64,000 nt of DNA from Rhizodiscina lignyota (lineage: Eukaryota): assembly GCA_010015805.1 (NCBI GenBank), contig ML978125.1, positions 124,001 through 188,000 of the forward strand, in the 5' to 3' direction. Below the pieces are notes generated by a model. That model worked only from the letters and a program-made list of their open reading frames with translations. It was not told the DNA's origin and made no database searches. Below, piece after piece: positions 1 to 57,678 of the stretch (position 1 is its first letter; each line of letters opens with the position of its first letter). The position numbers and the translations under genes were made by a program.

Positions 1-639
1 TGATCCCATGAAGATGACGGCATCATTTGAGTGTGGCCTGGAAGGCTTGTTCTGTGAGTTCTGAATGAATTGACGCTCTAGCAGGCGCAGAAGGATAGAC
101 CAGCCAGTGAAGACAGCGCAGGTACTTATTCCAATCCAGGTAGAGGTGCGGACGTAGCAAAGGACAGACATGATAGCGGCAAAGCAGATCCAAGTCAATA
201 CAACCCAAGCCTGAGATTGCCAATGGATTTGGCGCAATATACTTTCGTCAGCGCGCGGCTTGATTCTGTAGACAGTGCAGCTGGCGTGCTTGAGCAGGTC
301 AAGGTGGCTGATCGTCTTCGCAGTGCGCATATTCCGCAGAGGTGCGGTCTTTCCTCCAAATGGACTGATATATGTCTGGCCTACCGACTCATAGAGCTGG
401 GAGGTGGATCGTAGGTAGTTCTGCAGACCAGCGACAGGAGCAGCGGACAGGCACTCGGAGAGGGTGCGGCGCATCATGCGGAAATTCACCTCCTCGCTCT
501 CGCCCAAGAGGACCATGAACGATGAGACATCGAACTGCCATTTCTCGAACTTTGTGGCGACCATGTCGAGGGCATTGAAGAGGGAGACGCCAGCGGGATT
601 CGAGGGCAGAAGCAGAGAGAGAGGGTTGAGGGGTGACAT
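1..639 (-). CDS. Uncharacterised fungal membrane protein, 3' end outside window (partial, >=213 aa)
   Basis: Read manually; absent from the ORF track because no stop occurs in the window. Open frame from ATG 639 (alternative ATG 564): MSPLNPLSLL...MVATKFEKWQFDVSSFMVLLGESEEVNF...QAWVVLTWICFAAIMSVLCYVRTSTWIGISTCAVFTGWSILLRLLE...DAVIFMGS. It has two adjacent hydrophobic segments and runs off the edge. Confidence 0.7.
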   Translation of the reverse strand, partial: MSPLNPLSLLLPSNPAGVSLFNALDMVATKFEKWQFDVSSFMVLLGESEEVNFRMMRRTLSECLSAAPVAGLQNYLRSTSQLYESVGQTYISPFGGKTAPLRNMRTAKTISHLDLLKHASCTVYRIKPRADESILRQIHWQSQAWVVLTWICFAAIMSVLCYVRTSTWIGISTCAVFTGWSILLRLLERQFIQNSQNKPSRPHSNDAVIFMGS

Positions 640-1140
640 GAAGAACTTCGAACAGGCCAAGCACGCACAGCCTCGTCCCCGGTCGCACAAGTGGATCAGT
701 GGAATTCGAGTCGATGCGCGAGCGGAGATGTCTGCACGGCGAGCTCATAAGCTGCAGAGGGATGCGTCTGGGCTTTTATCGCACCACTGAAGGCAAACCT
801 CCGCGCCACGCTGCTCAGCTCCACCTCACGCTACCCCGGCCTGCGCCTCACCGGTCGCGCGCACAGCCCTCACCTCACTCTCCTCCCGTCCCTTCGACGC
901 GCTTTTCATGTTCGTTCATTCGACGTAATTCGTATCGCTCGCTCTGCCTCTCAGTGCGCCTTGGCCCTCCGGCCCTTCCGCTCCACCTTTTCGAGGCTGA
1001 GGCATCTTTATCATGGAGAGCCCGCTCCGCCTCGACGCCCTTGACTCGAGGCATTTCATTATTCCCGCTCTCGACGGCCGCAGTCTCCTGTGAATGTTGA
1101 AGCCGCTCAGCGCCATTGAGAGCCATTGCCCGGCTCAATC

Positions 1141-3672
1141 ATGCCGTTCTTCGCTCAATTCGCGTCGCTGACCGGTGGCAACATGCTTCCATGGGAGAAG
1201 AAAATGCAATTCGACCTCCACCTGCCAATTGAACAGGGCCACAATACGAGATCTGGGAAACAGCTCCAACGGCAGATTTTGAAAGTACTAGATTGCGCCA
1301 CCCCGACGGATGCAAGCGCTCGTGGGACCTGGCGCGTTTTCGGCGGGCACCGCAAAGGCTCGCTCCGCTTTCTTACCGCGTACACGCGCCGCGTTATGTC
1401 CTGGTCTTCGGATAAAGCCGTTCATCCACGGAATTTTGAAAGCAGACTCGACCTGGCCAATGGCACACCGGCTCCTCAATTTCAAGTGGTGGAGGCTGAC
1501 CACCTGAGTGGACTGCACAGGGATAAGCCCAAGTACTTAGCTGTCTCATACCGTTGGCCCAAACGATCACGACAAAAAGCGCCTGCAGACCTGAAGAGTG
1601 ATGTACATTGCTACGATGTGTGGGATCCGAGAGCCAATGGGGGCCACGGAGGAGTGCGCAAGAATAACGCCCCCAAGGAGGTCATCGATCGAGCTATCAA
1701 ATTCGCAAAGGACAGAAGGATTCAGTTGGTGTGGATTGATCAAGAGTGCATCAATCAGTCAGATCGCCATGACAAAGAGTGTGGTATTAGATCCATGGAC
1801 GACATCTTCCTCAACGCAGCAAAAGTCATTGGTCTCCTGCAAGTGCGCATCGACTCCGAAACAGAAGCCAAAGTGCTCCATAGGCTTACTGTAGAACAAC
1901 CTCGCCTCGACCCGAAATCTTTCAAGGCCGCGGTCAATGTCGTATACCGCATCTCTCAGGATGAGTGGTTCTCTCGAGCTTGGACTTTCCAAGAAGCAAT
2001 ATCCGGCGGCAATACAATCGAGTTCTCGATGAAGTGTGATCCTAAATTGAAGCAGCAAGCGAGCCATGGCGATACGGACGCATGGGGCGCAGTCGAAGAT
2101 GAGATTCAGTTTCAATTCGTCCACATTGCGAAGTGGCTCGCCTGCCTATTTGCTCAAGCCGCCTTCTATGATCAGAATCCTTCCCCTGACCTTCTCGATG
2201 GCGACCGTGACGACATCTGGCAGAAAATTGAAGAGATCCGCATATCTCTCATGAACCACTTTCCACCTTTCTATGAACCAACTCATCTCTCACGCCCACG
2301 CTTGAGTTGCAACGCTTCTGCAGCCCTCATGTTTCTCAAGAAGCGCCAGAACAGTCGAGCCCCAGATCGCGTTTCAATCCTTGCGAGTTTGGGGAACTAC
2401 CCCAGGAAACTGAATATTATGAAAATCCACAAATTTACCATGAGCAGCTGCGTTCTGGCACAAGCCCTTCACAACGGAGATATCTCCGTTTTAAGCAGCA
2501 TAGAAAAGGACGAGTGGCGCAAGAAAAAGCGATCGCAGGGCTTCTCATGGCTCCCACCGACAACAATAGCTCTGGAAAACGTAGCAGCGCACCACGAAGG
2601 CCATCCATCGTTGCGGCTTGTAGACCATTCAATAACGAAACGAGGCCTGTCTTTGCCAGGATTCTATTGGACCGTCAACCAGAAAATCGATGTGAGGTCA
2701 ATAAAGGAGAAATATTTTCAAGAGTGGGGAGAGACACGCAGTGCAGAGGGCCAAGAAGAAATCAAATGGGTGCTCCGGAAGATTGAGAAGGACGCACGCA
2801 CGGGCACAGGAGAGTTCTTTGACCGCCTTGTGAACGCATCAGAAAAATACTGCATCCGAGACCTACATAATCTCGACGACGATAAAGCTTTGGCTCACCA
2901 GGCCATTGGAAGCCAAATCCTAGGAGAATTACTGTGTCTTCTGGTGGAGAAAAACTACTTGAACATGGCAAATTCGATCTGGCATTCTGTCCGAAGGAAG
3001 ACTCCTATCCTGTCGCCTGAGGAGATGGAGAATAGCCACCATACCCGCCACAGCGACAATTCGACGTTGACGGAAGTCCCTGGATCGTGGTTTAACAAGC
3101 ATCACCCTCTGGGTGAGCTGCCTTGCACCCTCAATCACTTCGTGATAGATGGACGGCTTCAGATCCCTTGCATAAGCGACCGATCCCGAGCTGGTCGACT
3201 TTTCATCCCCATGAAGGACAACTGGGAATGGATCATTGACAGGATAATGCGCGACGGCTTTCTGTGGGGTGGTCAGTCAAGTGATGACGTCCACTCCAAT
3301 ATAGACGACGAGTCAACAAGTTGCATCTTTGACGTCGATTGTGGATGTGTCGTGTTAACGCCGTACTGCGGAGAAGAAGTAGAAAAGATGGAAGATTCCG
3401 GTAACCTCATTGCGCAATCCTTGCCGCTTATGCGAAGTCGGCGGATTTCTTGGGTAGTCGAACGCGCCGAGATGGATCATCGAGAAGACTGGTGTGGGTT
3501 ACTTTCGAGAAGGGATCGAACAGATTCGGACAATTTGGACAAAGAGCAGAGGTCTTGGCTGTCTCGTCTTGCTTCACCGGAATCAAGTCGGTATCGCTAC
3601 ACTACGAAAGGAATGGTCGCGGGTGTGTGGCGGTGCGGAGACCTTGCTCCGGTACAAGCCACACTCATATGA
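1141..3672 (+). CDS. HET (heterokaryon incompatibility) domain protein, ~843 aa, intronless
   Basis: HET-domain motifs in order: YLAVSYRW, VWIDQECINQSD, IRSMDDIF, WFSRAWTFQE, followed by DRVSILASL. First ATG at 1141; the track start at 1126 is TTG. Confidence 0.9.
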   Translation: MPFFAQFASLTGGNMLPWEKKMQFDLHLPIEQGHNTRSGKQLQRQILKVLDCATPTDASARGTWRVFGGHRKGSLRFLTAYTRRVMSWSSDKAVHPRNFESRLDLANGTPAPQFQVVEADHLSGLHRDKPKYLAVSYRWPKRSRQKAPADLKSDVHCYDVWDPRANGGHGGVRKNNAPKEVIDRAIKFAKDRRIQLVWIDQECINQSDRHDKECGIRSMDDIFLNAAKVIGLLQVRIDSETEAKVLHRLTVEQPRLDPKSFKAAVNVVYRISQDEWFSRAWTFQEAISGGNTIEFSMKCDPKLKQQASHGDTDAWGAVEDEIQFQFVHIAKWLACLFAQAAFYDQNPSPDLLDGDRDDIWQKIEEIRISLMNHFPPFYEPTHLSRPRLSCNASAALMFLKKRQNSRAPDRVSILASLGNYPRKLNIMKIHKFTMSSCVLAQALHNGDISVLSSIEKDEWRKKKRSQGFSWLPPTTIALENVAAHHEGHPSLRLVDHSITKRGLSLPGFYWTVNQKIDVRSIKEKYFQEWGETRSAEGQEEIKWVLRKIEKDARTGTGEFFDRLVNASEKYCIRDLHNLDDDKALAHQAIGSQILGELLCLLVEKNYLNMANSIWHSVRRKTPILSPEEMENSHHTRHSDNSTLTEVPGSWFNKHHPLGELPCTLNHFVIDGRLQIPCISDRSRAGRLFIPMKDNWEWIIDRIMRDGFLWGGQSSDDVHSNIDDESTSCIFDVDCGCVVLTPYCGEEVEKMEDSGNLIAQSLPLMRSRRISWVVERAEMDHREDWCGLLSRRDRTDSDNLDKEQRSWLSRLASPESSRYRYTTKGMVAGVWRCGDLAPVQATLI

Positions 3673-4913
3673 TGAGGCGGAAATACAGATACTGCTCACC
3701 AAACCACAGTTTGCGGGATCCCTAACAGAATGCAAAAACACTATCCGCTGCAGACTTCTTCGGACAGGTATCATCGAGCCAACAGTCTGCATGGCTTTTT
3801 GCTGTACCGATTCCTTCCAGACTGACGCATTCGAAATATCGCCGGAGTTCAAGGCCGGTTTCGCTTGTATGAAGGCTTTGAAGGCTTCTTGAGGAAGACC
3901 CGTGCGCCAAAAGTTGTGACTGTTAAAAGATATTGAGCTGATAATAGTCGATGTATCGAAAGAAGAGACGGTAAGTTACTGGAGATTGGATACCGCTTTC
4001 TGCGCCGGATTAATCAGACTAAATCATGGACTCTTTTGTCAAACCATCTGTTCCGTTTTCAGAGCGATTCTCCAGCGGCGATCATTTGCACCTGCAGGAG
4101 GTGGAAACACAAAGTGTGTAGCTATCAGATGACGAGAGAAGTGTTTCACAGTAGCACAGGATAACGAGTACCCTGAGAATGTTTTTTGAGCAATTGTTCG
4201 AAATCAGGTGCTTATCCTACATAGCAACATGCTGCTTGTTACTCTGTTCCATCTCCTCGGAGGCACGAAGATAGCCCGTTTTTCCTCAATCAAAACGGCA
4301 AGAGGAAGCTTGATCTTCAAGGGCGTAGCCCATTCTTTTCAGATCGAAACGGAATGAGAATGTAGCAGCTCCAGGAGGAGAGCCAGGTCTCTCAGAGTCA
4401 GATGGCAAAGCCTAATAATTCTCAAGCTTCGTACATCGCGGCATTTTGAGCAGTCAGCATTTCCAGACATGAAGGGAGCATTAAAAGATGTGTTTCAGTC
4501 GCGCCTCGGTTTAAGCTTTCCTTAATGGTTCCCCATACCTTCGTGCAATGCGGAGGCTTTTCAATTTTGAATAATATGCTCGTTGCATGAGAAAACTGCT
4601 AAGAATTACAATGAAATCGTTCAAAAGTAGCGGTATCGCATTCGGCTGCTAAACACAAACTTCATTTCGACATCAGTGCAACCAGCATCCAATAATCATT
4701 CTGAAAGCAAATGAAACTTCCCACAATATAACCATTTGCCCCCGTGGCGGAATGTCGGTTTTTACTCACTCTATCCTCTCCATAAACTGATCAAACTTCG
4801 CCTCTTCACCAATATTTCGACCCACCATCTTCTTCCGAGCTCCCTCTACCGGCAATGTCAGCCATGCTCTCAGCAAGTCGAGAAACAGTCTTTACTTTTC
4901 CTTTACGAGGGAA

Positions 4914-5852
4914 CTAGTTATTGATGTGGAAGCTAAGAAACGGAGACTCACGCCTCAATATCGCCCCAAAGGGCCCCAACTGTGTGGGTGCTAGCTTCGT
5001 ACCCGCATCAGGCTTTTTGATTTCCTTTTTGATATTTGGAGCACTTTCTTCTGCTTGCGCCACTTTCAGGCCGCTCTTCTTGGTCTGTGTCCTCCTTAAT
5101 ATTCCAGAATGCCTCATAGGCTGCCCTTCTTCAGAATGTTCGGTTGGAGTATAGGCCCAGTAGGGTATGTGTTCCATTCTCGGGTAACGCCGAATTTCAC
5201 TCAGCTGATAGGCGAACACAAAGTCACAAGACTCTTTGAAGGGGTCCATATTTGTATTTCCACCGTATCCAAACCCAGAGCTGCCTCCTGTGATTGGAAC
5301 GACTTGAGTTGATCCATCTGCCTGCGTGGATTCTTGTGGACCCGTTGAGTCGATCTTGATGGGTTTCATCTGCGCCCCGATGGCGACTGCAATACCCGTA
5401 ACCATGTAAACTGATCGGTGAGAAGCGAAAATCGCTTCCGATAAGATCCTAATCAGACCACGACCATCTGAGTAGGCACGAACATCCCTAACTTCGATAG
5501 CCCTTTCGACATAATCTAGCTCTGGTCGCATGATATGACTCTGAAGTTCATGAAATGTCCAAGAAAGTTCAGGAGACCCTTCGCCTTTCTTGGAGAGGCT
5601 CCCAACAGTGATTGAGGGGTTATTGTTTGCCCAACGTCTAAAGGCATCGGCCAACTCGTGCGTTGAGTTTTGGGCAACTTGTTCTATCTTCACCGTAGGG
5701 TTCAGGAGCGCGTTCGGAACGGGGATTGGTCCTCTTGGCTGAAGTGTGCGGAGAGGGTCGTATGGGTTGGCAATTATGGTGCCGAGTTGCAGCTCGCTGC
5801 CTGGAGTGATGCTCCAAGTTTTGGTCAAGATCCAACGTTCTCGTTTCTCCAT
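4914..5852 (-). CDS. Fungal gasdermin-like pore-forming protein (RCD-1/HET-Q1 type), ~312 aa
   Basis: Motif order matches fungal gasdermins: WILTKTWSITPGSELQLGTIIANPYDP, WTFHELQSHIMRPELDYV, VYMVTGIAVAIGA, DFVFAYQLSEI, then a C-terminal tail. Likely start is Met at 5852; an in-frame upstream ATG exists at 6032. Confidence 0.75.
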   Translation of the reverse strand: MEKRERWILTKTWSITPGSELQLGTIIANPYDPLRTLQPRGPIPVPNALLNPTVKIEQVAQNSTHELADAFRRWANNNPSITVGSLSKKGEGSPELSWTFHELQSHIMRPELDYVERAIEVRDVRAYSDGRGLIRILSEAIFASHRSVYMVTGIAVAIGAQMKPIKIDSTGPQESTQADGSTQVVPITGGSSGFGYGGNTNMDPFKESCDFVFAYQLSEIRRYPRMEHIPYWAYTPTEHSEEGQPMRHSGILRRTQTKKSGLKVAQAEESAPNIKKEIKKPDAGTKLAPTQLGPFGAILRRESPFLSFHINN

Positions 5853-6214
5853 TGTTTCTGAACTGGTGTATTTCTCTGAGGTGATCACAAAAATTCTGGT
5901 GTTATCGTTCTGAATCCGTTGTGCCGGAAGGCTCCAGCTTTTTAACGATGAGGCCACAAGGCTGTCCGTCAGCCTTGCGAACGGCTGTTGGATCGTAAAC
6001 CTTGCTGCAGGTGGTACAATTGGCCCATTCATGTATTATCTCCATCCATTGATGCCCGCTAGTATTCTTCGTAGGGCTTTATCTGCACGTTCGTACAAAT
6101 GCGACGTCGAGACCGCTCCAGAACAAGGCTCACTCCAGCCTTGCACGATATTCTGACGGCTATTACGGCCTTCCGTTCGCGAGAATTCGCGCGCAATATT
6201 TCATCCTACAGTGA

Positions 6215-6993
6215 GTCGCTGCTGCGGCAGCGCAGCTCATTGAGAGCTTCAGAAAGTTGAACACTTTTGTTTCCGAGATCCGAGACATCCCTGATGACAT
6301 TCAAAATTCACTTGAAGATCTGTCACTGCGAACAGAGACTCTCGACCTGGTGCGAATCCAACTCTCCCGAAATGACCTGCCGCAAGACCGAAACCACGGT
6401 ATCTCTCTCAAGGCTCTATCTAGCCTACAACAGGGTTCATGCCACGTTGAAGAAACGCTCAGGGACATACAAGAGAAGATTGGAAAGAAACGATACAGGG
6501 ACAGGATCAAAGTTGTGGGAATGAAAAAGAAACTTGACAAGGCCACTTCACGAGCCGAAGCTGCACAGAGTCTGTTACTTTTAGCGCTTACCATCGACAA
6601 TAGGTCCTAGCCTTCTGTCTTACAATTATTGAATGAGTTATGCTGATCCTGACTAGATCTGTACTCGGCCAAGGTGTGGGCGCTCAGCAGCAATGGCTCA
6701 TCGATGAAGATGCTAAGCCCAGAGTTTCAAGACCCTCCAAAAAAGCCTCTGGACCAATTCTCGTCAACTCAAGAACATTCCGGTTGAAATCCCCCACGTG
6801 GCTTTTAAGTCAAGCTTGGGAGTTGAACGTCCGTAAGGGAAGCCAAGGGTGGGACTTGAGCCTTCAATCATACCGGATCCACCCCATTGATACAAACATC
6901 TTCAATGCCATTTGGAGCGGAGATCTTACACAGGTGCGCGACTTAATGTCTAGAGGAGAGGCTTCAATACGCCAGATACTCTGGGGCACTTAA
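6215..6993 (+). pseudogene. Degenerate gene with fungal STAND N-terminal/HeLo-like helical domain and the start of an ankyrin-associated region
   Basis: VAAAAAQLIESFRKLNTFVSEIRDIPDDIQNSLEDL resembles the N-terminal helices of fungal NLR-associated proteins. After a probable intron (~6605-6656) comes IFNAIWSGDLTQVRDLMSRGEAS, which typically precedes ankyrin repeats. There is an in-frame TGA immediately upstream, no clear ATG, and an early stop at 6993. Confidence 0.55.
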
Positions 6994-7688
6994 GAATGTG
7001 GTCTCCAATGCAAGTTTTCTTACAATAGCACTTTTACTCACATACGTGGGGCATGACCTTGAACATCCTGCAAAATTGAGACTTGGAATACAGGAACAAT
7101 TACTTCAGCAAGGACTGAAGTATTATGTTACTGAGATGCTGCGGTTAGGAATAGATGTGGCACATTAGTTGATATTGAAGACCGATATTTGCGAACGGTA
7201 AGACTTGGGTCTGGAAGGGGCTGGATAGAGCAGATTTGGTATGTCGGGTGATTGGTTTCCGGCACGGTCCCAACGTTGACGACTGGCATCTCAAATGGGC
7301 AGGGGAATTTTGGGATATGATAGAACATCCTGAAAGAATGATTCCGGGAGCTTGGAACGATGAATAGAACGAGTCACGAGGATAAGAATGACATTTGAAT
7401 GATGCATGAAATCATGGAATATACGATGCTCATCTAATTACTAGATAACTAGAAAGAAGCGATAGGAAGAATGAATCTGTACTGAATTGATCATCGTACT
7501 TCCGACTGGCAGCTGGCAGAGAATCAGATATTGAACATTAGGAGACATGATATACTTCGTTCATTCCTCAAAGCTGGGTTAAATGTAGAAGCGTTATTGG
7601 GATGAGCCCTACTGCTATCGTTACAGTGAACATTCTATGTAGCATCCCACTCAATCCTCGCTATATGACCACAGCTGACGTGTAAAAT

Positions 7689-8996
7689 TTATCTACCAAT
7701 CTCCAGAAACCTCTTCACAGCCTCTTCATTCTGCGCTACCAGGTCAATATCATTAGTATACTTCGCCCCCATCCCTAAACTGGCACGAATCTTGTCCAAA
7801 TCGTCGCCCGTATCTTCCTCTGCGAATGCATAAATACGGCCAAACGCCCTGCTGATATCGACCACCTTCTGAGTCCTCGGTTTCCGCACTTCCTCGTACG
7901 CCTTGAATGCCACTTCCGCCTGTCTCAGCTCCATTACATGGCCAAACAAGGCGGTTAGAACCGCTGCGTCCTCAATGGATTGAGCAGCGCCTTGTCCGTT
8001 AAAAGGCAAGGTGGCATGTGCAGCATCTCCGACAAGACAGATGTTGCCGCGCGAGTAGAACGGTGCGTGGTCATGATCTGCAAGCTTCCAATCAGTGATC
8101 GGTTCGCGCATCACGAGTGTCGCAACGTCCTTGGCGTCCTTGGTCCAATGCACAAAGTGTTCTGTTGAGATGTGATCCGGTATCTCTTGCACCCCTTCTT
8201 CCGAGCTGTGCACTGCCGCCAGCCTGGATTCCTTAGAAATTTGAACCACGGCGACGCTGAGGCTCTTCCCGAAATGGAGAGGCATGCAGTTCATGAACGC
8301 GCCATGACCGCAAAATATTGGTACGTAGGTGAGCAGTCTCTCATTTAGCGCATTGGCTTCCTCAGCAGGGACGACGCGTCGCACCCAAGCCCAGCCATCG
8401 TGGTTTTTGAGTCCGACTGCGGGATGATCGGGACCCAGGAGATACTTTCTCGTGGCGCTGTGCACACCATCGCATCCTATCAGCACGTCGGCCTTGGCTG
8501 TGGTTCCGTCTTTGAAGGTTAGAGTGATGCTTCCGGCTTGTGCGTCGTTCTCAGTTGGCGCCTCGGAGATCTGTACAAGCCTCTTCCCAAATCTGACGAC
8601 TCCTTCCGGCACAAGACTCAACAAGCCGTCCAACAAGTCACTCCGCGCTACCGTCTTCCTCCCCTTCGCCTTTCCCAGCTCCGCAAGCAACACATCTCCA
8701 CCGTCTTCTGCCACTGCGTCCCCGACCAAAACCCGCGTTGCCATCTCCACGTCCCTTTCGGTCATCACAGTCGCGCGCCGGTAATACTCTGCCTGCAGCT
8801 CCGGGTCGATCAGTTCGAGAGCGCGCATTGCATTGCCATGGAAGGCAAGCCCGCCACCTATGTCGAGGTACTTCTGCGTCGCTTCGTAGACGGTAATATT
8901 GAGATAAGGATACTGTAACAAGCCACGTGCGAGGCAGAGGCCACCTATTCCTCCGCCCGCGATTGCGATGTCGATCTTTTGGGGGGTTGAAGTCAT
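7689..8996 (-). CDS. FAD-dependent monooxygenase (salicylate hydroxylase-like)
   Basis: GGGIGG FAD-binding motif, ADVLIGCDGVHS (DG motif) and LVGDAAHATLPFNGQGAAQSIEDA (GD motif). Intronless, 435 aa. Confidence 0.9.
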   Translation of the reverse strand: MTSTPQKIDIAIAGGGIGGLCLARGLLQYPYLNITVYEATQKYLDIGGGLAFHGNAMRALELIDPELQAEYYRRATVMTERDVEMATRVLVGDAVAEDGGDVLLAELGKAKGRKTVARSDLLDGLLSLVPEGVVRFGKRLVQISEAPTENDAQAGSITLTFKDGTTAKADVLIGCDGVHSATRKYLLGPDHPAVGLKNHDGWAWVRRVVPAEEANALNERLLTYVPIFCGHGAFMNCMPLHFGKSLSVAVVQISKESRLAAVHSSEEGVQEIPDHISTEHFVHWTKDAKDVATLVMREPITDWKLADHDHAPFYSRGNICLVGDAAHATLPFNGQGAAQSIEDAAVLTALFGHVMELRQAEVAFKAYEEVRKPRTQKVVDISRAFGRIYAFAEEDTGDDLDKIRASLGMGAKYTNDIDLVAQNEEAVKRFLEIGR

Positions 8997-9923
8997 GGCG
9001 GAATGGCGGCGGTGCGGACGGAGCTTAGAATTCGAGTTGCATATATATAGATGACAGAAACAAGATCAGGCCGGTGGAGAGGCATTTGTCATGAATCTGA
9101 AAATCCTTTCTTTCCTGTCATGTAAGACGGAGAGTTTTCAGACATGGAAACTGTAGTATGGCGTAGCTCTACAGAAAGGACAGAATGCAGTGTTTGGACT
9201 AAACACATCTTTGCACAAGTAATCAAGGGGCTCACTCGTCGACTCGTTTATGAAGATGAACATGATTTGAAGGGATGATTCACGAAAGTTAGATGATGTC
9301 TAGCAAGAGAATTTGTCAAGGAGAAGCACGCGCAGGTAATTAGATCAGAGGTAGGTATAAAGAGAGTGAATAAATGAAATTGTAAGTTATATGACGAGAT
9401 ACTACACCATTTAGCGCGGACATTGGCGTTCTACATGAAGCCATCCAATCTTTGGATTGTGAGAAACCTCATAACGGCATGACGGGAAGACGGGAGATTG
9501 ACCTGAAGTGACACCTGTCACGTGCATCCCCACACTTCCATTCCGGTCTTGGCCCTTTTCTCAATTAGGAAGTTTGCGAAAGGTCAATGCTACTCCGTAG
9601 AGTAGTCTTGACTGGACGTATAATATAGTTTCAACAATAATAATGAAAAGTATAGAGTAACAGACCTTAACACATTAGCTTTGCCAATTTATACGAATTG
9701 TTGATTTCAAGGAGGGATGAAGCTCGGCCCCACAATACAAGCACACGAGACAGCCAAAATTTCATTGTAGGAATTTCGTGCATGATTATCTGCGAATGTC
9801 TCCAAGATTACATGTTCCGGGCCATCTGAAGCCTAATGCAGCTCTATTCGCAAAAATGCGCGTCGAACCGTCTCCTCCTTGATACCCCATGCCCCTACCA
9901 CTCTTCCTCCTCTCACGCCATAT

Positions 9924-12479
9924 TCACGGAAACTCAAAAATGCTAACTGTATGACAAAACCAATTCGCATTCGGGATGTTCGGCACGAGCGCCACCTTAT
10001 CCACCTCCACCATATCTGTGGCGGCAATCGTATTCAAATTGTAAATATAAATAGCCTCCGACTTCTCTAAACTGACCATGTGCTCCTGGCAGTTTGATGT
10101 GAGTAAACAGGCTGAATCGTAGTTGTTGAAGAAGGAGTACAACCCCGCGCCAAATATCAGGATGTACGCGCTGTTGTAGATGCGCAGCCCGAATGTCTTG
10201 TAGCATGTTTGTTGGAAGCACTCGCTGAAGGTTGGGTCGTAGTAGTCCGAGCGTGGAGCGTATGGGACGAGGGCGTTGGGGTTGGATTGCATATACCTTC
10301 GCGTAATTATCAGAAATGTGTATACATAGCTAGATCATGTGCGAGCCGACTTACGCCGTCTCCGTCTGAATCGACGACATGAACACATTCCTTGCGTTTG
10401 CAACCTGATAGTTATAAAGCATGCTGTGCTCCATCGCCGTACCCCACAGCCAAGTCGGTTTCTGAGACTCGATGAGAATGCCGCGGCCGTTGTAGATGTT
10501 GATCTGGTTGTGATCCGGCAGATCGAGCTCGTGATCGGAGACCCACCCCCAATTATTCTCCATATAGACCGACGCGTCACTGGTGATATGCATGAGCATA
10601 AATGCGCCAAAGCACTGCGCATTAGGGAATGTCTGGAGATTGGGCGTTTTTGTGCAGATGTTGGACTGCAAAAGGGTTCCGGCCGTGCCCCCAATCCGCC
10701 AGTGTACTTCCCACATGGCAGCATTTCCAGGTTGATCTCCCGCTAAATTCCACTCGATGATGATGGCACCTGGAGCAGGGCCACGAGTCTCGAACACCAT
10801 GTCTGTCATTTCGACATGGCCGACGTCACCTGGATTCCCGACTCTCCAAGCCGGCTTGGGATTATTGATATCAGAGAATGTTGGCGAAGAGCCATCAACC
10901 ATGATCATCGGGAACTCCTCTCCAGTCATCCGAATATTTGCTGGAACCTGGATAGTGTCTCTGATTAAGTATGCGCCGTGGTCGAAGAAAACTACCTGAT
11001 TGGTGGATACGGTGTTGAATAAGGTCTGAATAGCGGCGGTATCATCCGACACGCCATCACCTATTGCACCAGCATCCTTAACCGACATAAAAGACGTTAC
11101 AGGGAGCTCCTCGTACTGTGGTTTGGATCTCTCAAATATTGTGCCGCTGGGAGTGAGGAGACCAGACGGCTTCGGCGGCGGATCAACCATGCGCTGAATG
11201 CGTGCCGAAGCCGCTGTCGGCTCGTAGCAGGTTAAATTGCCAACTTGTTGGGCCGCGATGAAAGCACTATAGACTGTCCCTTGCGCCCAGGATTGAATCT
11301 TCTGGCCCCCGGCTAAGATGGTCGTGCCATTTGGAGATGCGACGGCTGTCGTAGCGCCCGTAAAGTCGACGTTATCAAATACGAAGGAACCGCCAGTCGT
11401 TGCCATGCTATTGTTGGAGAACGATGTTAAAACGGCGATTGGCGTGTTAATGAATGTACTATCCTGCAGCGTGCCTGATCCGACAGTTTGAACGCCTCCA
11501 GCGCCGGAGCTGTTGTCCATGTTCGAGAGGTCGATACCGATTTTGCAGCCGTTGAAGGTGTTCGATTTGAACGCCCACAGCCAATCCCAGTTCATGTATA
11601 CCCCAGTGTTGCATCCATTGAACGTCAGATTGCGGCTCGTGAACTGCTGGTTGCCAAGGTAGAATCCGACATTTCCTCCATTGAAGATAAGGTCGCACAT
11701 AAATCCTCCAGAGCCGTTATCCATGAAGATACCTCTTTGCTGATTGTCCGCGCTGACTGGCTGCATATTGATTACGATATTCTGTAACTGTGTGGCCTGC
11801 GCGACCTGCCAATGTAGGCCGGCATTGAGAGAGTTTGCAGGTAGTAGTGTAAGGTCGAGAATCAAATTCCGTACTTGGCGGTAGAAATTATTCTGATTCG
11901 CATACCAGCTAGCGCCACCTGGGTAGTAGACATCTGAATCTAAGAGGCCAATCCCGAAGAAGCCTGGTAGACCTTGAATGATGGGCATGTCCAAAGGATC
12001 ACCGATGACCGAAGTAAAGTAGTACATTATGATGGGTGTGCTAATCATGTATGTGCCGGAAGGAATATAGACCACTGCAGGTGTTGTTGTCGAAGAATCG
12101 CATCCTGATCCACAGCGGTTTCCGTCGGCGATTGCAGCATTGATGGCATTCGTATCATCGGTAACTCCGTCACCTGATTTTGATCAGCGATGACTATCTG
12201 GCTTCCAATTTTAGTTCCATGGTACCTTTAGCGCCATAGTCCTTTACATTTCGATAGACGACATATGTGCTGTTTGTACCAAATGGTACTTTGCCCTGCT
12301 TCTTCATCAAAGAATACCAATATGACGTCCCGGACTGTCGCCTATGTTCTCTCGCATGGACCTAGTCATGGTTCAGTAACTAGCCAGACAAAACATTGAG
12401 GAGTGTTTACCGAGAGGCAAAATACTGCCAACAGAAATAACAACCTCCATAACGTCGGCTGTGTAGTCAATGTGATCAT
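9924..12479 (-). CDS. Secreted GH55 exo-beta-1,3-glucanase
   Basis: Signal peptide MITLTTQPTLWRLLFLLAVFCLS; RNVKDYGAKGDGVTDDT assembled across introns; NQNNFYRQVRN, HWQVAQATQLQN, second GAIGDGVSDDT repeat, WVSDHELD, IQTETA. Introns at about 12362-12410, 12175-12225 and 10295-10355. Confidence 0.92.
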
Positions 12480-52703: not shown

Positions 52704-55700
52704 TCAGCCACTGCGTCCTATGTTCCAGCCAGTCACCGTCCTCTCACTCTCATACTTCCTCATCGCCGCCAAAGATGGCCTTGACGATGGCGCCGGGCTA
52801 TGATCGGTGCTCTTGCTTTGCAAGCGCCGCAAGTGACTGCTTGTCTCTGCTCTCGTCGGTCTCTCAAATTCAGCAGCAGCATCTTCCTGTTCAGCTAGTA
52901 GGTCCATATTCTCTTTCGTGAGCGCCTGGCGGACGCCCAAACCCCTCGCCTCGCCCTTCTCCTCCTCACTAAGGAGATGCTGCTGCTGTCGTGGGTTCTC
53001 AGTCATGGATAAGAGCTTGTCATCACGCAGACTTAATGCTTTCTCTTCTGCTGCTGCGCGTCTCGTCTCTCGATCATGCTCCGAGCCTTCAGAGCGATTC
53101 AGAGCCGTCCGGTTGGCCCAGTCGATGTGACTCAACTTATCCGATAGATGACGAGTTAATCTGTCCATATTCTGGCCTTTCCGTGGCACTTCTGGCTCAT
53201 CCAATGGCGTCTCCGAGCTGTCAGTCAGAGTTTGCAGTTGTCGGAAGTCTTGCGAACTGACATCGGTCTTGTCCTTCGCCGCATCCGCAGCCTGCTTGCG
53301 CTTCGCCTCCAACGCCCACTTCACAAGCATCTTCTCCAATAGCTTCGGTTTCACGGGCTTCGCTAAGTAGTCATCCATACCCGCGCGCTTGCACTTCTCC
53401 CGATCACCTTGTATTGCGGACGCAGTCATCGCGACTATAGGGATTTTGCGGATACTCGAGGAATTTTTGAATGGTTCTTGTGTACGAATGGTGTGCGTTG
53501 CACGATACCCATCCAAGATGGGCATTTGCACGTCCATCAATATGATATCTGGACGAGGATTTTCTGGCGTAGGAGCTCTCAGGAGATAATCGAGAGCCTC
53601 ACGACCGTTCCAGACGGCGTTGACGGAGAACCCGAGTTTCTTGATCGTCTTGAGCGCTATTTGCTGATTTATCTGGCTGTAGGAATTGTCAGCAAGTTCC
53701 ACGTTGCGGGAAGTAGTCAGGAATTAGTGGACATGGAAATAGACATGAAGGATCACTCAGACTTACTTGTCTTCCACAATAAGCACATGGATCTTGCTCC
53801 TCTCCTCCTCCGGTATATCAACAATGTCATCCGCACCTTGGACAATGGACGAAATTCTCGATAGCGAACCAGAGTGGTCTCTCTTGTGGCCCAGCTCCTG
53901 CTGAGAAGACAGCTTCGGTGTATGCGGATTGCGATTCATCTCATCCGACCCAAACGACAGAGAAGCATCAGACTGCAGTCGATCAGGAATCTGCGTGACA
54001 TCTACGAGCGGCGAGCCGTCGTTTGAATAAGACACCTTGCTGAAGGGTATCCAGAATGTCGCCTTCGTTCCGGAACCAAGCCTAGACTCGAGTTGGATCT
54101 TGCCATGCATCAACTCCACGAGGTTCTTGCTGATGGTGAGGCCGAGACCTGTGCCTCCGAACCGTCGAGCTGTGGACGAGTCTGCTTGGCTGAACGGCTT
54201 GAACAGCCTCTTACGCACTTCTTCTTCGATACCTATCCCAGTGTCCTCCACGACAAATTGAACGCTCACGGCGTTGTCCGTCTCCCCGATGACCGAGACC
54301 GTGAGGTGGACATAGCCGCTGGTAGTGAACTTGATGCTGTTCGTCAGAAGATTGGTAAGGACCTGGCGCACACGACCCGGATCGCCCATAACAGTCAGAT
54401 CGCGCTCAATTTCCGACGCGATGCTGCACTCATAATCAAGCCCCTTCTTCCAAGCTGCAAACGAGAGCATCTTGTTGACGTCGCGAATGGCTACGGAAAG
54501 GCTAAACTGGACTTCTTCGATATCGAGCCGCCCAGACTCAACCTTTGAAAAGTCAAGAATCTACGCTACTGGTCAGCAGACAGACATGTTAAAGAGCTCA
54601 CAGGTGCGCATTCATACATCATTGATCACAGTGAGAAGTCCATTCGCAGACCTTTGAATGTTGTCGGCACAGTCGCGCTGCTCTTGATCAAGTTTCGTGT
54701 CCATGAGGATCTCGCTCATGCCGATAACTCCAGCGATAGGAGTACGTATCTCATGTGACATCTACTCAATGTTAGTGATTGCATCTTCCGAAGAGCGTCG
54801 CTCCTTGCACAAGTGTATCGGTAGGTCTCAGAGTGATCTACTCTGTTGCGAGCCTTCTTAAAGCAGTTGAATCGGTGGCAAAACTTACATTTGCTAAAAA
54901 CTGGGATTTCATTCGACTAGCTTCTTTAGCAGCTACAGCATTAGCAAGGAGCCTCGCGTTCTCCCGTTCCTGCTTCCGGAGCTCATCTTCGCGATCCCGA
55001 AGCTCTGTAGATGAAGAAGTCAGCTACTATGACGCGGCATTTGTGACTCCGTCAATCTTGTCATCATACCTGTCACGTCCATGCTAAGTCCGATGACGCC
55101 GTCGATGAACTTCTTGCTGTCGATGCCATCATTCCGACCCTGGTGATAAAGGGGCAATATGCGAGATCTGAACCATTTCCCGCTGCCATCTATATGTATC
55201 TCGACAATCTCCTCGGTCGCGCGATCCTGCAAGATGTCTTCAATCGGCTTCTTCAGAAAGTCAATGTCGTCCCCGCCCTGTCTCTGGCCAAACACCTCGT
55301 ATATATTACGGCCAATTGAACTCGGACCAATGTCTGCACTCCCTCCTTCCTCGGGCGTGTTCTTCCACATAAGGTTTCCTTCGAGGAGCGTCAAGTTGCG
55401 ATTTCGATCAACCGCCCATAGCGTTACGTGTGCATGCTCGATGACCTTGAGCAATTGCTCTCGAAGCGACTTGGCCGCTTGTCGGGTTTCAACAAGCTCA
55501 TGAATGTCCGTACACGTTCCGAACCACTTGAGAATCCTCCCCTGATTGTCCCTGAGAGGGAGAGCGCGACCTAACATCCATCTCCACATGCCATCGAATC
55601 GCCTGCAGCGGTACTCTACGATGTACTCGTCGCCCGTTGCAAGGGAATGTGCCCATCTTTTGCTCGTCTCGGGCATATCGTCCGGGTGGAACGATGTTGT

Positions 55701-57678
55701 CCAGCGCTCTCCCAGAGATTCTTCGGGAGTCAGGCCTGTGTAATCATACCATCTCTGCGAGAACCAATCCGGTAACCCTGCTGACGTGCTTGTCCAAACT
55801 ATGGGTGGGATCATATTGGCAATGTTTCCAAGCTGATGTGCATTCTCAAGAACTTGCTCGGCGAGCTGATTACTAAGATCTGTATCGTCGCGGAAAGTGC
55901 ATAGACCACCGAGGAATTGGCCGCTGTCATCTGTTATCATCTCGCCGTGGACGGTGAAGATGATTTTGGCGCCGGTTTCGGGATGCCTCATTCCAATCCG
56001 TCGGCTGACAAAGGGCTTTTGATTCCGCACGAGATCCACGACGGGAAATTCATCAACACTAAGCCGCCGGGTGAAGTCTTCTGTATACATCTTGAATTGT
56101 GACAGAAACTCGCTCTGATCTAGATCAGCCATTTCGTATGTGGCCTCCGGGTTTGGATGCAGCTTTAGCAAGCCTCGATTAGGAATACCGAAGCTTTCAT
56201 CTTTCCACATCGCATAAGCAGGCATGTTTGTAGAGTTCAATATGGCATCCTTCATTTGTGAAGCTTTCGCAAACATTGAGTGTGCCGTAGATTGGCTAGA
56301 TCTAGTCGGCGGACCGCTAGGGGGGAATACAGGTGGTCTGACACTAGGCGAACTGCCGTGCGAACTCGGATTGGAGCTCAGTGCGGACCGTCTACCACCT
56401 TTGCCTTGGGAAGATGAGGAAGACAGTGAGCCTGGTGATTGCCTCAACATTGTGTTAGTTCGAGCGACGGTGCGGGTAGATGAGCGCTCTATCGGTCGCG
56501 TCGTCGGCTGAGGAGCTGCGCTTGTGAACGTCAGAGTTATGTATTGCTGCTCTTCCAGAGTCCAGACCGAAATAATCATCGTGGCTTGGAGCGGCGCCCC
56601 GAGGGACGATTTGGCGGGCTTTGAGCTGGATGATTTCGATGCGGGGCATCGATCGCATGAGATCAGCACATCGATAGTCGTTTCATGGATCGTGGTCGAG
56701 TTGAGATTAGACCTCGAGAGGTTTTGAGGTGTTGGTGATTCTTTAAACTGTCCTGGTTTTGGCGTGCTCGATCTGCTCGTGGAATCTCCGTGGTCGCTGG
56801 TGTCTGCGCCCTCTGCCTCACTGGGAGTCTTTGAGCTGTTCTTAACCACACCATCTAGGAAATCCTGTGAAGATGTGAGCACTGTGAATAACAGAAGCAG
56901 TTGGCCAAAGAAGGTGTCTCCTGCATCATCTCTTTGTCTTGATATAGTATAATTCTTGCCAGCAGCATATTGTACAAGTCACTCAGCCTTGGAAGTTCGC
57001 GTCTATTTGTCAGAGAAATTTCCTCTATAAATAGGCCCACTACTCCCAAGGCTGTCGCTGCTTGACGAAAGAATTTTTCTGCTGATTGTTTCGTCTCGTA
57101 CGCATTCGCGGCTGGCAGAACGGCGAGCAAGAGCTGATGCCATAGGGCGCGAGGTGAGGAATACAAGTATATGAAACTTGCTGGGGTGCTTGATCTGTAT
57201 CGTGGTGAAGAAAGCGACTTACCTCCCACGAGATCAGTATTGGACTTCCCCTTTGTAAGAGATCAATTCCAAGTTGACCAATACTGTATCCATGAAGTAT
57301 ATCCGTCACTGACATGACGCCCTCACCACCGCGTTCCATTTCGTTCGGAAACTGCAATAGCTTGATATTAAGCAGTCGCCCCATCGCTTCATTCGCAAGG
57401 ATGACAGTTTTCTGCGACGAGAGCACGATGAGAGGTACCGGAAGGTATTGCAATGCCGCAAACGCAGGCACGATCGCATTCGAAGGTTCGACCATGGACA
57501 GTGGTTGGCTTCTAACAGACGAGGGTGACGATGCTCCATCTGGCTGTAGGTCAAAGTAGGAATCCGCACCAATATCTAGGTTGGTTTCATTCAAGGCTGC
57601 CGGTGAGGCAATATTGGTTCTGGCGACATCACCGCGACTGTCGACAAGGGCCTCGCCATGGAACTCGGACGACTTCAT
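52704..57678 (-). CDS. PAS-domain hybrid histidine kinase (HisKA-HATPase-receiver)
   Basis: PAS/PAC segments ([25 protein letters not shown]), H box [14 protein letters not shown] split by an intron, [22 protein letters not shown], and receiver [19 protein letters not shown]. Confidence 0.93.

Follow-up and report, generated by a model that had tools for sequence, protein, structure and literature searches.

A fungal gasdermin gene with no protease gene in view, beside HET-domain and SesA-like sequences in Rhizodiscina lignyota

Fungal gasdermins joined the study of pyroptosis only recently. In the fungal gasdermin HET-Q1, the C-terminal tail is an inhibitory piece that is taken off by a protease. 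Two-gene clusters of the HET-Q1/HET-Q2 type are described by Clave et al. (2022) in Podospora anserina and 366 fungal species, and the same survey records 80% of 1,884 fungal gasdermins as having a protease gene no more than 10 kb away and the remaining 20% as having none (PMC8851545). The lack of such a neighbour is in itself no oddity; it places a gasdermin in a class that has already been reported. The allelic gasdermins RCD-1-1 and RCD-1-2 of Neurospora crassa have no linked protease; their published lengths are 244 and 257 aa (PMC12881547), which leaves little sequence after the pore domain. Here, a gasdermin gene of Rhizodiscina lignyota and its neighbours are compared with both systems.

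The DNA analysed is a 64-kb stretch of the R. lignyota genome, referred to below as the window. An initial annotation had recognized four adjacent loci at its left end, and all four are present at or near where it placed them. They run in the order membrane-protein gene (1-639, minus strand), HET-domain gene (1141-3672, plus strand), gasdermin gene (4766-5852, minus strand) and SesA/PigL_N-like fragment (6215-6610, plus strand). The HET and gasdermin genes are convergent, with 1.1 kb between the HET stop codon and the gasdermin gene, and this gap (3673-4765) contains short stop-to-stop frames only and no long frame. The SesA/PigL_N-like fragment is divergent from the gasdermin gene and lies 363 bp upstream of it. 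Neither repeats nor transposon ends were found in positions 1-9000 of the window. The stretch occurs in a single sequencing run, of DNA and likely from the source strain, and no RNA run is listed. Fast-turnover death and immunity gene families tend to cluster. The occurrence of three genes from death-effector families within 6 kb appears to lie above naive random placement, for which the expectation has to be drawn from the whole genome, and the locus is plausibly a hot spot for allorecognition-type genes.

The gasdermin gene has two exons (5852-4952 and 4845-4766) separated by a 106-nt intron (4951-4846) whose signals, GTGAGT...CTGAC...TAG, are canonical as read from the sequence. The annotated product, P0001 (326 aa), is 100% identical and adds the last exon to the open frame at 4914-5852 (minus strand), the part that the initial annotation had taken for a gasdermin. 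It was right to do so. A phmmer search of the PDB with the protein matched RCD-1-1 at 6e-5 and, more weakly, the HET-Q1 pore (0.028), and a family profile built from 70 relatives returned RCD-1-2 at 4e-24, RCD-1-1 at 4.6e-23, the HET-Q1 pore (9uv9_A) at 4.5e-19 and bacterial gasdermins at 3e-5. When the AF2 model was submitted to Foldseek, the top 12 rows were all RCD-1 chains (E 1e-9 to 3e-6), with bacterial and animal gasdermins ranking after them. The model has a mean pLDDT of 67.8, with core blocks at 91-98 and 109 residues at pLDDT ≥ 90. Relatives number 138 at E up to 0.001, the nearest only 36% identical, and all seven nearly invariant columns of the family (G24, P33, T152, G153, G159, G190 and G237) are kept. 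By family profile and predicted model, the 4766-5852 product is a fungal gasdermin with a pore-forming fold, and membrane pore formation and cytotoxicity are predicted from its family. It is a member of the same family as HET-Q1 and shares with it the arrangement of a pore-forming domain (here about residues 1-235) and a C-terminal tail, which in this case is unusually long and basic. The RCD-1 proteins are its best matches among solved structures in both sequence and fold, but at 326 aa it is longer than either of them.

At 111 aa, the tail is the longest among 70 aligned sequences and carries a net charge of +7, whereas the tails of the other 69 average 79 aa (maximum 98 aa) and a charge of -10.4 (SD 5.1, maximum 0), and 68 of the 69 are acidic. 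Residues 239-326 fall mostly below pLDDT 50 in the AF2 model; in a control model of the relative P0003, the C-terminal strands at 258-274 are confident (block pLDDT 78-86). Where five of seven relatives have D/E-D-F-D/E/K-V in an alignment from which HET-Q1 is absent (alignment A2), this gasdermin has G-L-K-V. A correspondence of this stretch to the L237/F238 cleavage site of HET-Q1 would be tentative at most. An acidic-x-Cys motif at the C terminus was considered as a family hallmark and dropped, being found in only 25 of the 69 relatives.

The genes around other gasdermins of this type were surveyed on 13 metagenome contigs obtained with an 8-sequence alignment as query; three of these are one lineage, and identity is only 23-33%. 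Eleven loci were scanned with Pfam, L002 and L003 being left out as loci with the frame layout of L001. A Peptidase_S8 frame lies about 0.5 kb or less from the gasdermin in seven of the eleven (L001, L005, L006, L007, L008, L010 and L012), in every one of them as its immediate neighbour and in five (L001, L005, L007, L008 and L012) in the convergent slot. The loci without S8 are L013 and three on contigs under 1.8 kb (L004, L009 and L011). On these contigs, the closest relatives normally have an S8 partner, in the manner of clusters of the HET-Q1/HET-Q2 type; two named relatives are listed in Dataset S1 of PMC8851545, PTB71324.1 as S8-paired and PHH92964.1 as 'n/f'.

By contrast with HET-Q1/HET-Q2, the 64-kb window has no S8 or CHAT protease. 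The 26 large frames that lie from 9 to 64 kb include none, and 13 S8/DUF7580 frames from the relatives' loci gave nothing below E 0.3 when compared with the whole window by tblastn. No protease relic turned up in the gap at 3673-4765, where these queries gave a sole tblastn match of 8 residues at E 3.7. The protease-free region comprises 4.8 kb downstream and 58 kb upstream of the gasdermin, as covered by the window. In Dataset S3 of PMC8851545, the genus Rhizodiscina is credited with 4 gasdermins, 0 HeLo and 0 HELL; Dataset S1 has no Rhizodiscina row, and the published neighbourhood survey does not include this gasdermin.

The convergent neighbour here is instead the HET-domain gene, an ordinary, stand-alone gene of its kind with an uninterrupted single-exon frame for 843 aa. 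Its initial description as a HET gene is borne out by a match to Pfam PF06985 at residues 132-285 (4e-20, 73.1 bits against a cut-off of 22.5) that covers the full profile, positions 1-146 of 146. About 560 residues without a recognized domain follow, and a sequence search of the PDB gave nothing at E up to 1. The product resembles other PF06985 proteins in carrying its HET domain ahead of a long C-terminal region that has no annotation, and differs from them in that neither polymorphism nor a partner gene is in evidence for it. A role in cell death may be assumed from family membership; most HET genes, according to the relevant passage of PMC12881547, are not het loci.

The fragment on the other side of the gasdermin (6215-6603, the frame running to 6610) had been described as a decayed STAND-N/HeLo-like gene, an assignment that fits its SesA/PigL_N-like (HeLo-like) character. 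The Pfam SesA match is weak (5.9e-4, 20.4 bits, under the cut-off of 26.3) and starts at profile position 3. The protein-language-model features of the fragment (Atlas) score 0.96 to Ascomycota clusters with PigL_N (PF17111) or SesA, domains that are carried by 10-27% of the members of those clusters. The fragment resembles the SesA/PigL_N domains of STAND proteins (PF17107, PF17111) in both its weak SesA match and its nearest Atlas clusters, but differs in having no start codon, a TGA at 6212-6214 directly preceding a frame with no ATG at its start, and no NTPase behind it. Splice-like signals (GTCCTA...CTGACTAG) suggest a candidate 53-nt intron at 6604-6656, followed by a second open stretch that ends in TAA (6657-6993) and has no recognized family, a Pfam scan of 6637-6993 giving nothing. 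In the remaining space before the next gene (6994-7688, plus strand) the frames are broken, at most 73 aa long and of no family, and Pfam gave chance-level rows only for 6947-7168, 7179-7367 and the minus-strand frames. The NACHT/NB-ARC NTPase families are absent by Pfam from every frame downstream of the fragment; only 1.47 kb precede the next gene, and 6994-7688 is too small to hold a STAND NTPase. No protein of at least 231 aa containing the fragment was found in a collection of 5.8 billion. Descent of the relic from a het-Q2-like (DUF7580-S8) gene was also considered and is ruled out, because the partner frames in the relatives' loci carry DUF7580 and S8, along with a weak match to TPR, but not SesA or PigL_N, and because tblastn with them gave no match at 6215-7688.

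At the left edge of the window, positions 1-639 (minus strand) encode codons 1-213, the 5' part, of a gene that extends past the window start, with at least 567 nt lying to the left. The product matches residues 1-213 of P0150, a conserved fungal membrane protein of 402 aa, with 100% identity. A hydropathy scan marks residues 145-163, 169-187 and 249-267 as hydrophobic 19-mers, in keeping with the initial description as a membrane protein, and nine more relatives (378-417 aa) are 41-75% identical. A Pfam scan gives no family, a sequence search of the PDB gives no match at E up to 1, and the best Atlas score, 0.83 with a recognition of 1746, is uninformative.

The linkage of these genes does not recur among the gasdermin relatives. 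A HET frame is present in 0/11 of the scanned loci, as against the seven with an adjacent S8 subtilase, and relatives of this particular HET, membrane or SesA-like gene are found in 0/13. Of the initial proposal that a gasdermin flanked by genes other than proteases may mark an undescribed pathway, the first part stands as far as the window extends, and the HET-gasdermin pathway itself finds no support.

The reading that we prefer, and hold with a little more belief than doubt, is that of an orphan gasdermin descended from an S8-paired gene and now lying among independent death-gene neighbours. The ancestor would have been an S8-paired gasdermin, and the linked protease would since have been lost. 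If still active, the protein would open membrane pores after a factor whose gene lies elsewhere, possibly a protease partnered with another of the gasdermins counted in the R. lignyota genome, had taken off or displaced its tail. The genes around it, namely those for the HET and membrane proteins and the SesA-like relic, would be independent neighbours with no joint pathway. Counting against this reading are the three death-effector-family genes within 6 kb, the position of the HET gene in the slot that S8 genes fill in five of the seven S8-bearing loci, and the small number of neighbourhoods compared.

Two other explanations are unlikely, to a similar degree. The first is that this is an allorecognition locus of the het-Q or rcd-1 kind, the gasdermin being one of its idiomorphs or alleles, with a protease gene or a divergent gasdermin allele in the same place in other strains. 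It is no more probable that death would follow only from the fusion of hyphae from unlike strains, as such a locus would entail. HET and SesA-like neighbours are typical of incompatibility-gene regions, and there are precedents for both kinds: het-Q1 and het-Q2 of Podospora are presented as idiomorphs, with no adjacent protease in the het-Q1 strain (PMC8851545), and RCD-1 is described as working without a protease (PMC12881547). Against this, the DNA comes from one run only, likely that of the source strain, in which no polymorphism is shown, and the RCD-1 variants are short, whereas the tail here is the longest of 70.

The second explanation of this standing is a graveyard of decaying death genes, in which the protease has gone and the gasdermin is drifting towards loss of function, as the SesA-like relic has done. 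A tail that is not confidently modelled and lacks the acidic character of nearly all relatives would fit such drift, as would the distance to the nearest relative and the missing start codon next door. The frame of the pore-forming domain is nevertheless intact, with every nearly invariant column in place, a confidently modelled core and canonical intron signals, all of which count against decay.

It is more doubtful still that the cognate protease lies to the left of the window, past the membrane-protein gene and within 10 kb of the gasdermin. A protease at 5.5-10 kb is conceivable because the DNA there is out of view; about 4.4 kb of the 10-kb clustering span falls outside both the window and the rest of the membrane-protein gene, and the published clustering rate would favour a protease within that span. 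In all seven S8-bearing loci, however, the protease is the immediate neighbour at about 0.5 kb or less, and here two unrelated genes would intervene.

Least probable of all, and very improbable in our view, is a working module in which the HET (TIR-like) protein senses a trigger and activates the gasdermin without the usual protease: the HET gene could be a replacement partner because it fills the convergent slot of the S8 genes in five of seven loci, with a spacing of 1.1 kb that mirrors theirs, and a remodelled tail would fit an altered regulator, but neither a HET frame in the scanned loci nor a relative of this HET in any locus was found, HET and SesA domains are absent from seven gasdermin relatives that have extra length or an extended N terminus (321-491 aa, and one of 292 aa), leaving no HET-gasdermin fusion among them, and the linkage is not described in the titles, abstracts and passages of the literature searched. 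The fuller version, in which the HET protein would have assumed both the genomic and the functional slot of the S8 protease and would control the gasdermin through the latter's remodelled basic tail, with the SesA-like relic as what is left of a third effector in the same island, is just as improbable.

As it stands, the locus adds an annotated case and no new mechanism. Were HET-gasdermin control to prove true, a TIR-like sensor in a eukaryote would reach a gasdermin pore by a route that needs no protease. The HET and SesA-like neighbours make this a reasonable place in which to seek allorecognition polymorphism. Among the approximately 20% of fungal gasdermins without a linked protease, the one described here is a clean case: a divergent gasdermin with S8-paired relatives, which has itself lost its partner and has a regulatory tail of changed character, is a candidate for asking whether such proteins undergo cleavage in trans, have some other means of activation, or are decaying.

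The four loci claimed in the initial annotation are all present within positions 1-7688, and the presence of three death-effector families side by side is real. The gasdermin identity of the 4766-5852(-) product is solid. Its frame at 4914-5852(-) had been called correctly: the translation matches the annotated protein NA57DRAFT_74788 (P0001) of the ascomycete Rhizodiscina lignyota at 100% identity, and the annotation adds a last exon, giving 326 aa from minus-strand exons at 5852-4952 and 4845-4766, separated by a 106-nt intron (4951-4846) with the signals GTGAGT...CTGAC...TAG. The frame stays open for 60 codons further upstream of the annotated start (5853-6032(-)). That start is used in all aligned relatives, and the ATG at 6032 is probably not the gasdermin start.

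Exhaustive HMMER searching of 1.84 billion representatives returned 138 relatives at E ≤0.001, mostly of 270-300 aa, the closest of which, self excluded, is 36-37% identical. Among PDB chains, the single protein detects RCD-1-1 (phmmer, 6e-5) and the HET-Q1 pore (0.028), and a family profile of 70 relatives reaches RCD-1-2 (4e-24), RCD-1-1 (4.6e-23) and the HET-Q1 pore (4.5e-19), with bacterial gasdermins at 3e-5; no Pfam model matches any of the 70 members. The gasdermin fold on which the initial proposal depended is present in the AF2 model (mean pLDDT 67.8, core blocks 91-98), for which RCD-1 chains fill the top 12 Foldseek rows (1e-9 to 3e-6) and gasdermins of bacteria, Trichoplax and mammals come next.

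Relatives are encoded at 13 metagenome contig loci (L001-L013; identity 23-33%). Frames of at least 130 aa were scanned with Pfam in 11 of these, L002 and L003 being set aside as having the same frame layout as L001. Peptidase_S8 frames lie ~0.5 kb or less from the gasdermin in seven of the 11, convergently in L001, L005, L007, L008 and L012, in tandem upstream in L006 and divergently in L010; the loci with no S8 frame are three contigs under 1.8 kb (L004, L009, L011) and one of 6.2 kb (L013). DUF7580 is N-terminal in the S8 subtilase genes of L001 (1599-3694(-), 1e-11) and L008 (2227-4471(-), 1.1e-17), a DUF7580-S8 architecture for het-Q2-like partners; in the L012 partner S8 is preceded by a weak TPR match in place of DUF7580. 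Clave et al. (2022; PMC8851545) report a protease gene within 10 kb of 80% of 1,884 fungal gasdermins. Dataset S1 of that survey lists the named relatives PTB71324.1 as S8-paired and PHH92964.1 as 'n/f', with no Rhizodiscina row; Dataset S3 gives the genus 4 gasdermins, 0 HeLo and 0 HELL.

The parsimonious account makes the window gasdermin a putative orphan of S8-paired ancestry whose regulatory tail has been remodelled. Past the conserved DFVFAY motif, this tail has 111 residues and a net charge of +7; those of 69 aligned relatives average 79 residues (maximum 98), with a mean net charge of -10.4 (SD 5.1, maximum 0). Five of the seven closest relatives carry D/E-D-F-D/E/K-V in the tail where the window protein has G-L-K-V. 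HET-Q1 is cleaved by its protease after F238, with L237 and F238 needed (PMC8851545); it lies outside the alignment, and its L237/F238 site is not equated with G-L-K-V. Residues 239-326 mostly fall below pLDDT 50, whereas the relative P0003, modelled with the same 70 sequences as a control, reaches 85.7 with confident C-terminal strands at 258-274, a gap due in part to the alignment being without homologous tails. The P0003 model has very long, high-confidence beta-hairpins (strands 50-74, 80-105, 148-166, 175-192) and resembles an extended, pore-like state, from which the compact model of the window protein differs. The locus may instead be a het-Q-like idiomorph, or the gasdermin gene may be decaying.

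No S8 or CHAT protease occurs among the 26 frames of at least 193 aa at 9-64 kb, the sole peptidase being a ubiquitin hydrolase far away at 48.7-51.0 kb. Elsewhere, a large frame at 10351-12183(-) scores strongly (2.4e-86) for a rhamnogalacturonase A/epimerase pectate-lyase-like domain, and PAS, HATPase_c and response-regulator domains run across three consecutive frames at 52704-56978(-), probably a single intron-split hybrid histidine kinase gene. When 13 S8/DUF7580 frames from the relatives' loci were searched by tblastn against the whole window, including the 3673-4765 gap and the SesA-like relic region, nothing fell below E 0.3. A protease may lie just beyond view; the window covers 4.8 kb left of the gasdermin stop codon and the membrane-protein gene runs at least 567 nt past the window start, so any left-hand protease would be more than 5.3 kb off, behind two genes.

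The putative orphan adjoins what is most parsimoniously an ordinary HET gene and a seemingly dead SesA-like gene. The former, an unbroken frame at 1141-3672(+), encodes 843 aa, with the complete Pfam HET domain falling at residues 132-285 (4e-20, 73.1 bits); Pfam and PDB sequence searches recognised no family in the ~560 residues C-terminal to it. The latter (6215-6610(+)) gives a Pfam SesA alignment that opens at profile position 3 and scores 20.4 bits (5.9e-4), short of the 26.3 gathering threshold, and its language-model features are nearest to Ascomycota clusters (score 0.96) in which 10-27% of members have PigL_N (PF17111) or SesA. The domain starts where the open stretch itself does, with no ATG there and a TGA directly upstream (6212-6214). 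A candidate 53-nt intron at 6604-6656, with splice-like signals (GTCCTA...CTGACTAG), would link it in frame to 6657-6993, past which frames are broken and no family matched. The next gene is only 1.47 kb from 6215, so an NTPase domain could not fit, and no protein of at least 231 aa in a 5.8-billion collection contains the fragment. We read it, as did the initial annotation, as a decayed or truncated gene. Directly to its right lies an ordinary metabolic gene, for an FAD-dependent monooxygenase (7689-8996(-); FAD_binding_3, 6.9e-19).

On the other side, 1-639(-) covers, at 100% identity, codons 1-213 of the gene for a conserved 402-aa membrane protein (P0150), which has nine further relatives (378-417 aa, 41-75% identity) and three hydrophobic segments, of which the window includes two. 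It matched no Pfam family and no PDB sequence, and no tie to cell death was found. The 75% match (P0151) comes from a metagenome-assembled genome labelled Pyrenula ochraceoflavens, a lichen fungus of a different class from Rhizodiscina, which would mean either strong conservation of the family or the presence of a Rhizodiscina-like fungus in that assembly.

The proposed linkage of HET and membrane-protein genes with the gasdermin does not recur: HET is in none of the 11 scanned loci, tblastn at 1e-3 found relatives of the window HET, membrane and SesA-like genes in none of the 13, and seven scanned longer or N-terminally extended gasdermin relatives have no HET or SesA domain. With neither recurrence nor fusion among the relatives examined, and no HET-gasdermin link in the titles, abstracts or passages searched, a true HET-gasdermin module is very improbable. 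The initial observation stands and its interpretation is partly supported, the novel pathway being the part left without support. The juxtaposition is suggestive of a region where death-effector genes accumulate. The locus adds a further gasdermin of an already known kind, and its most useful leads are the basic character of the tail and the absence of the partner gene.
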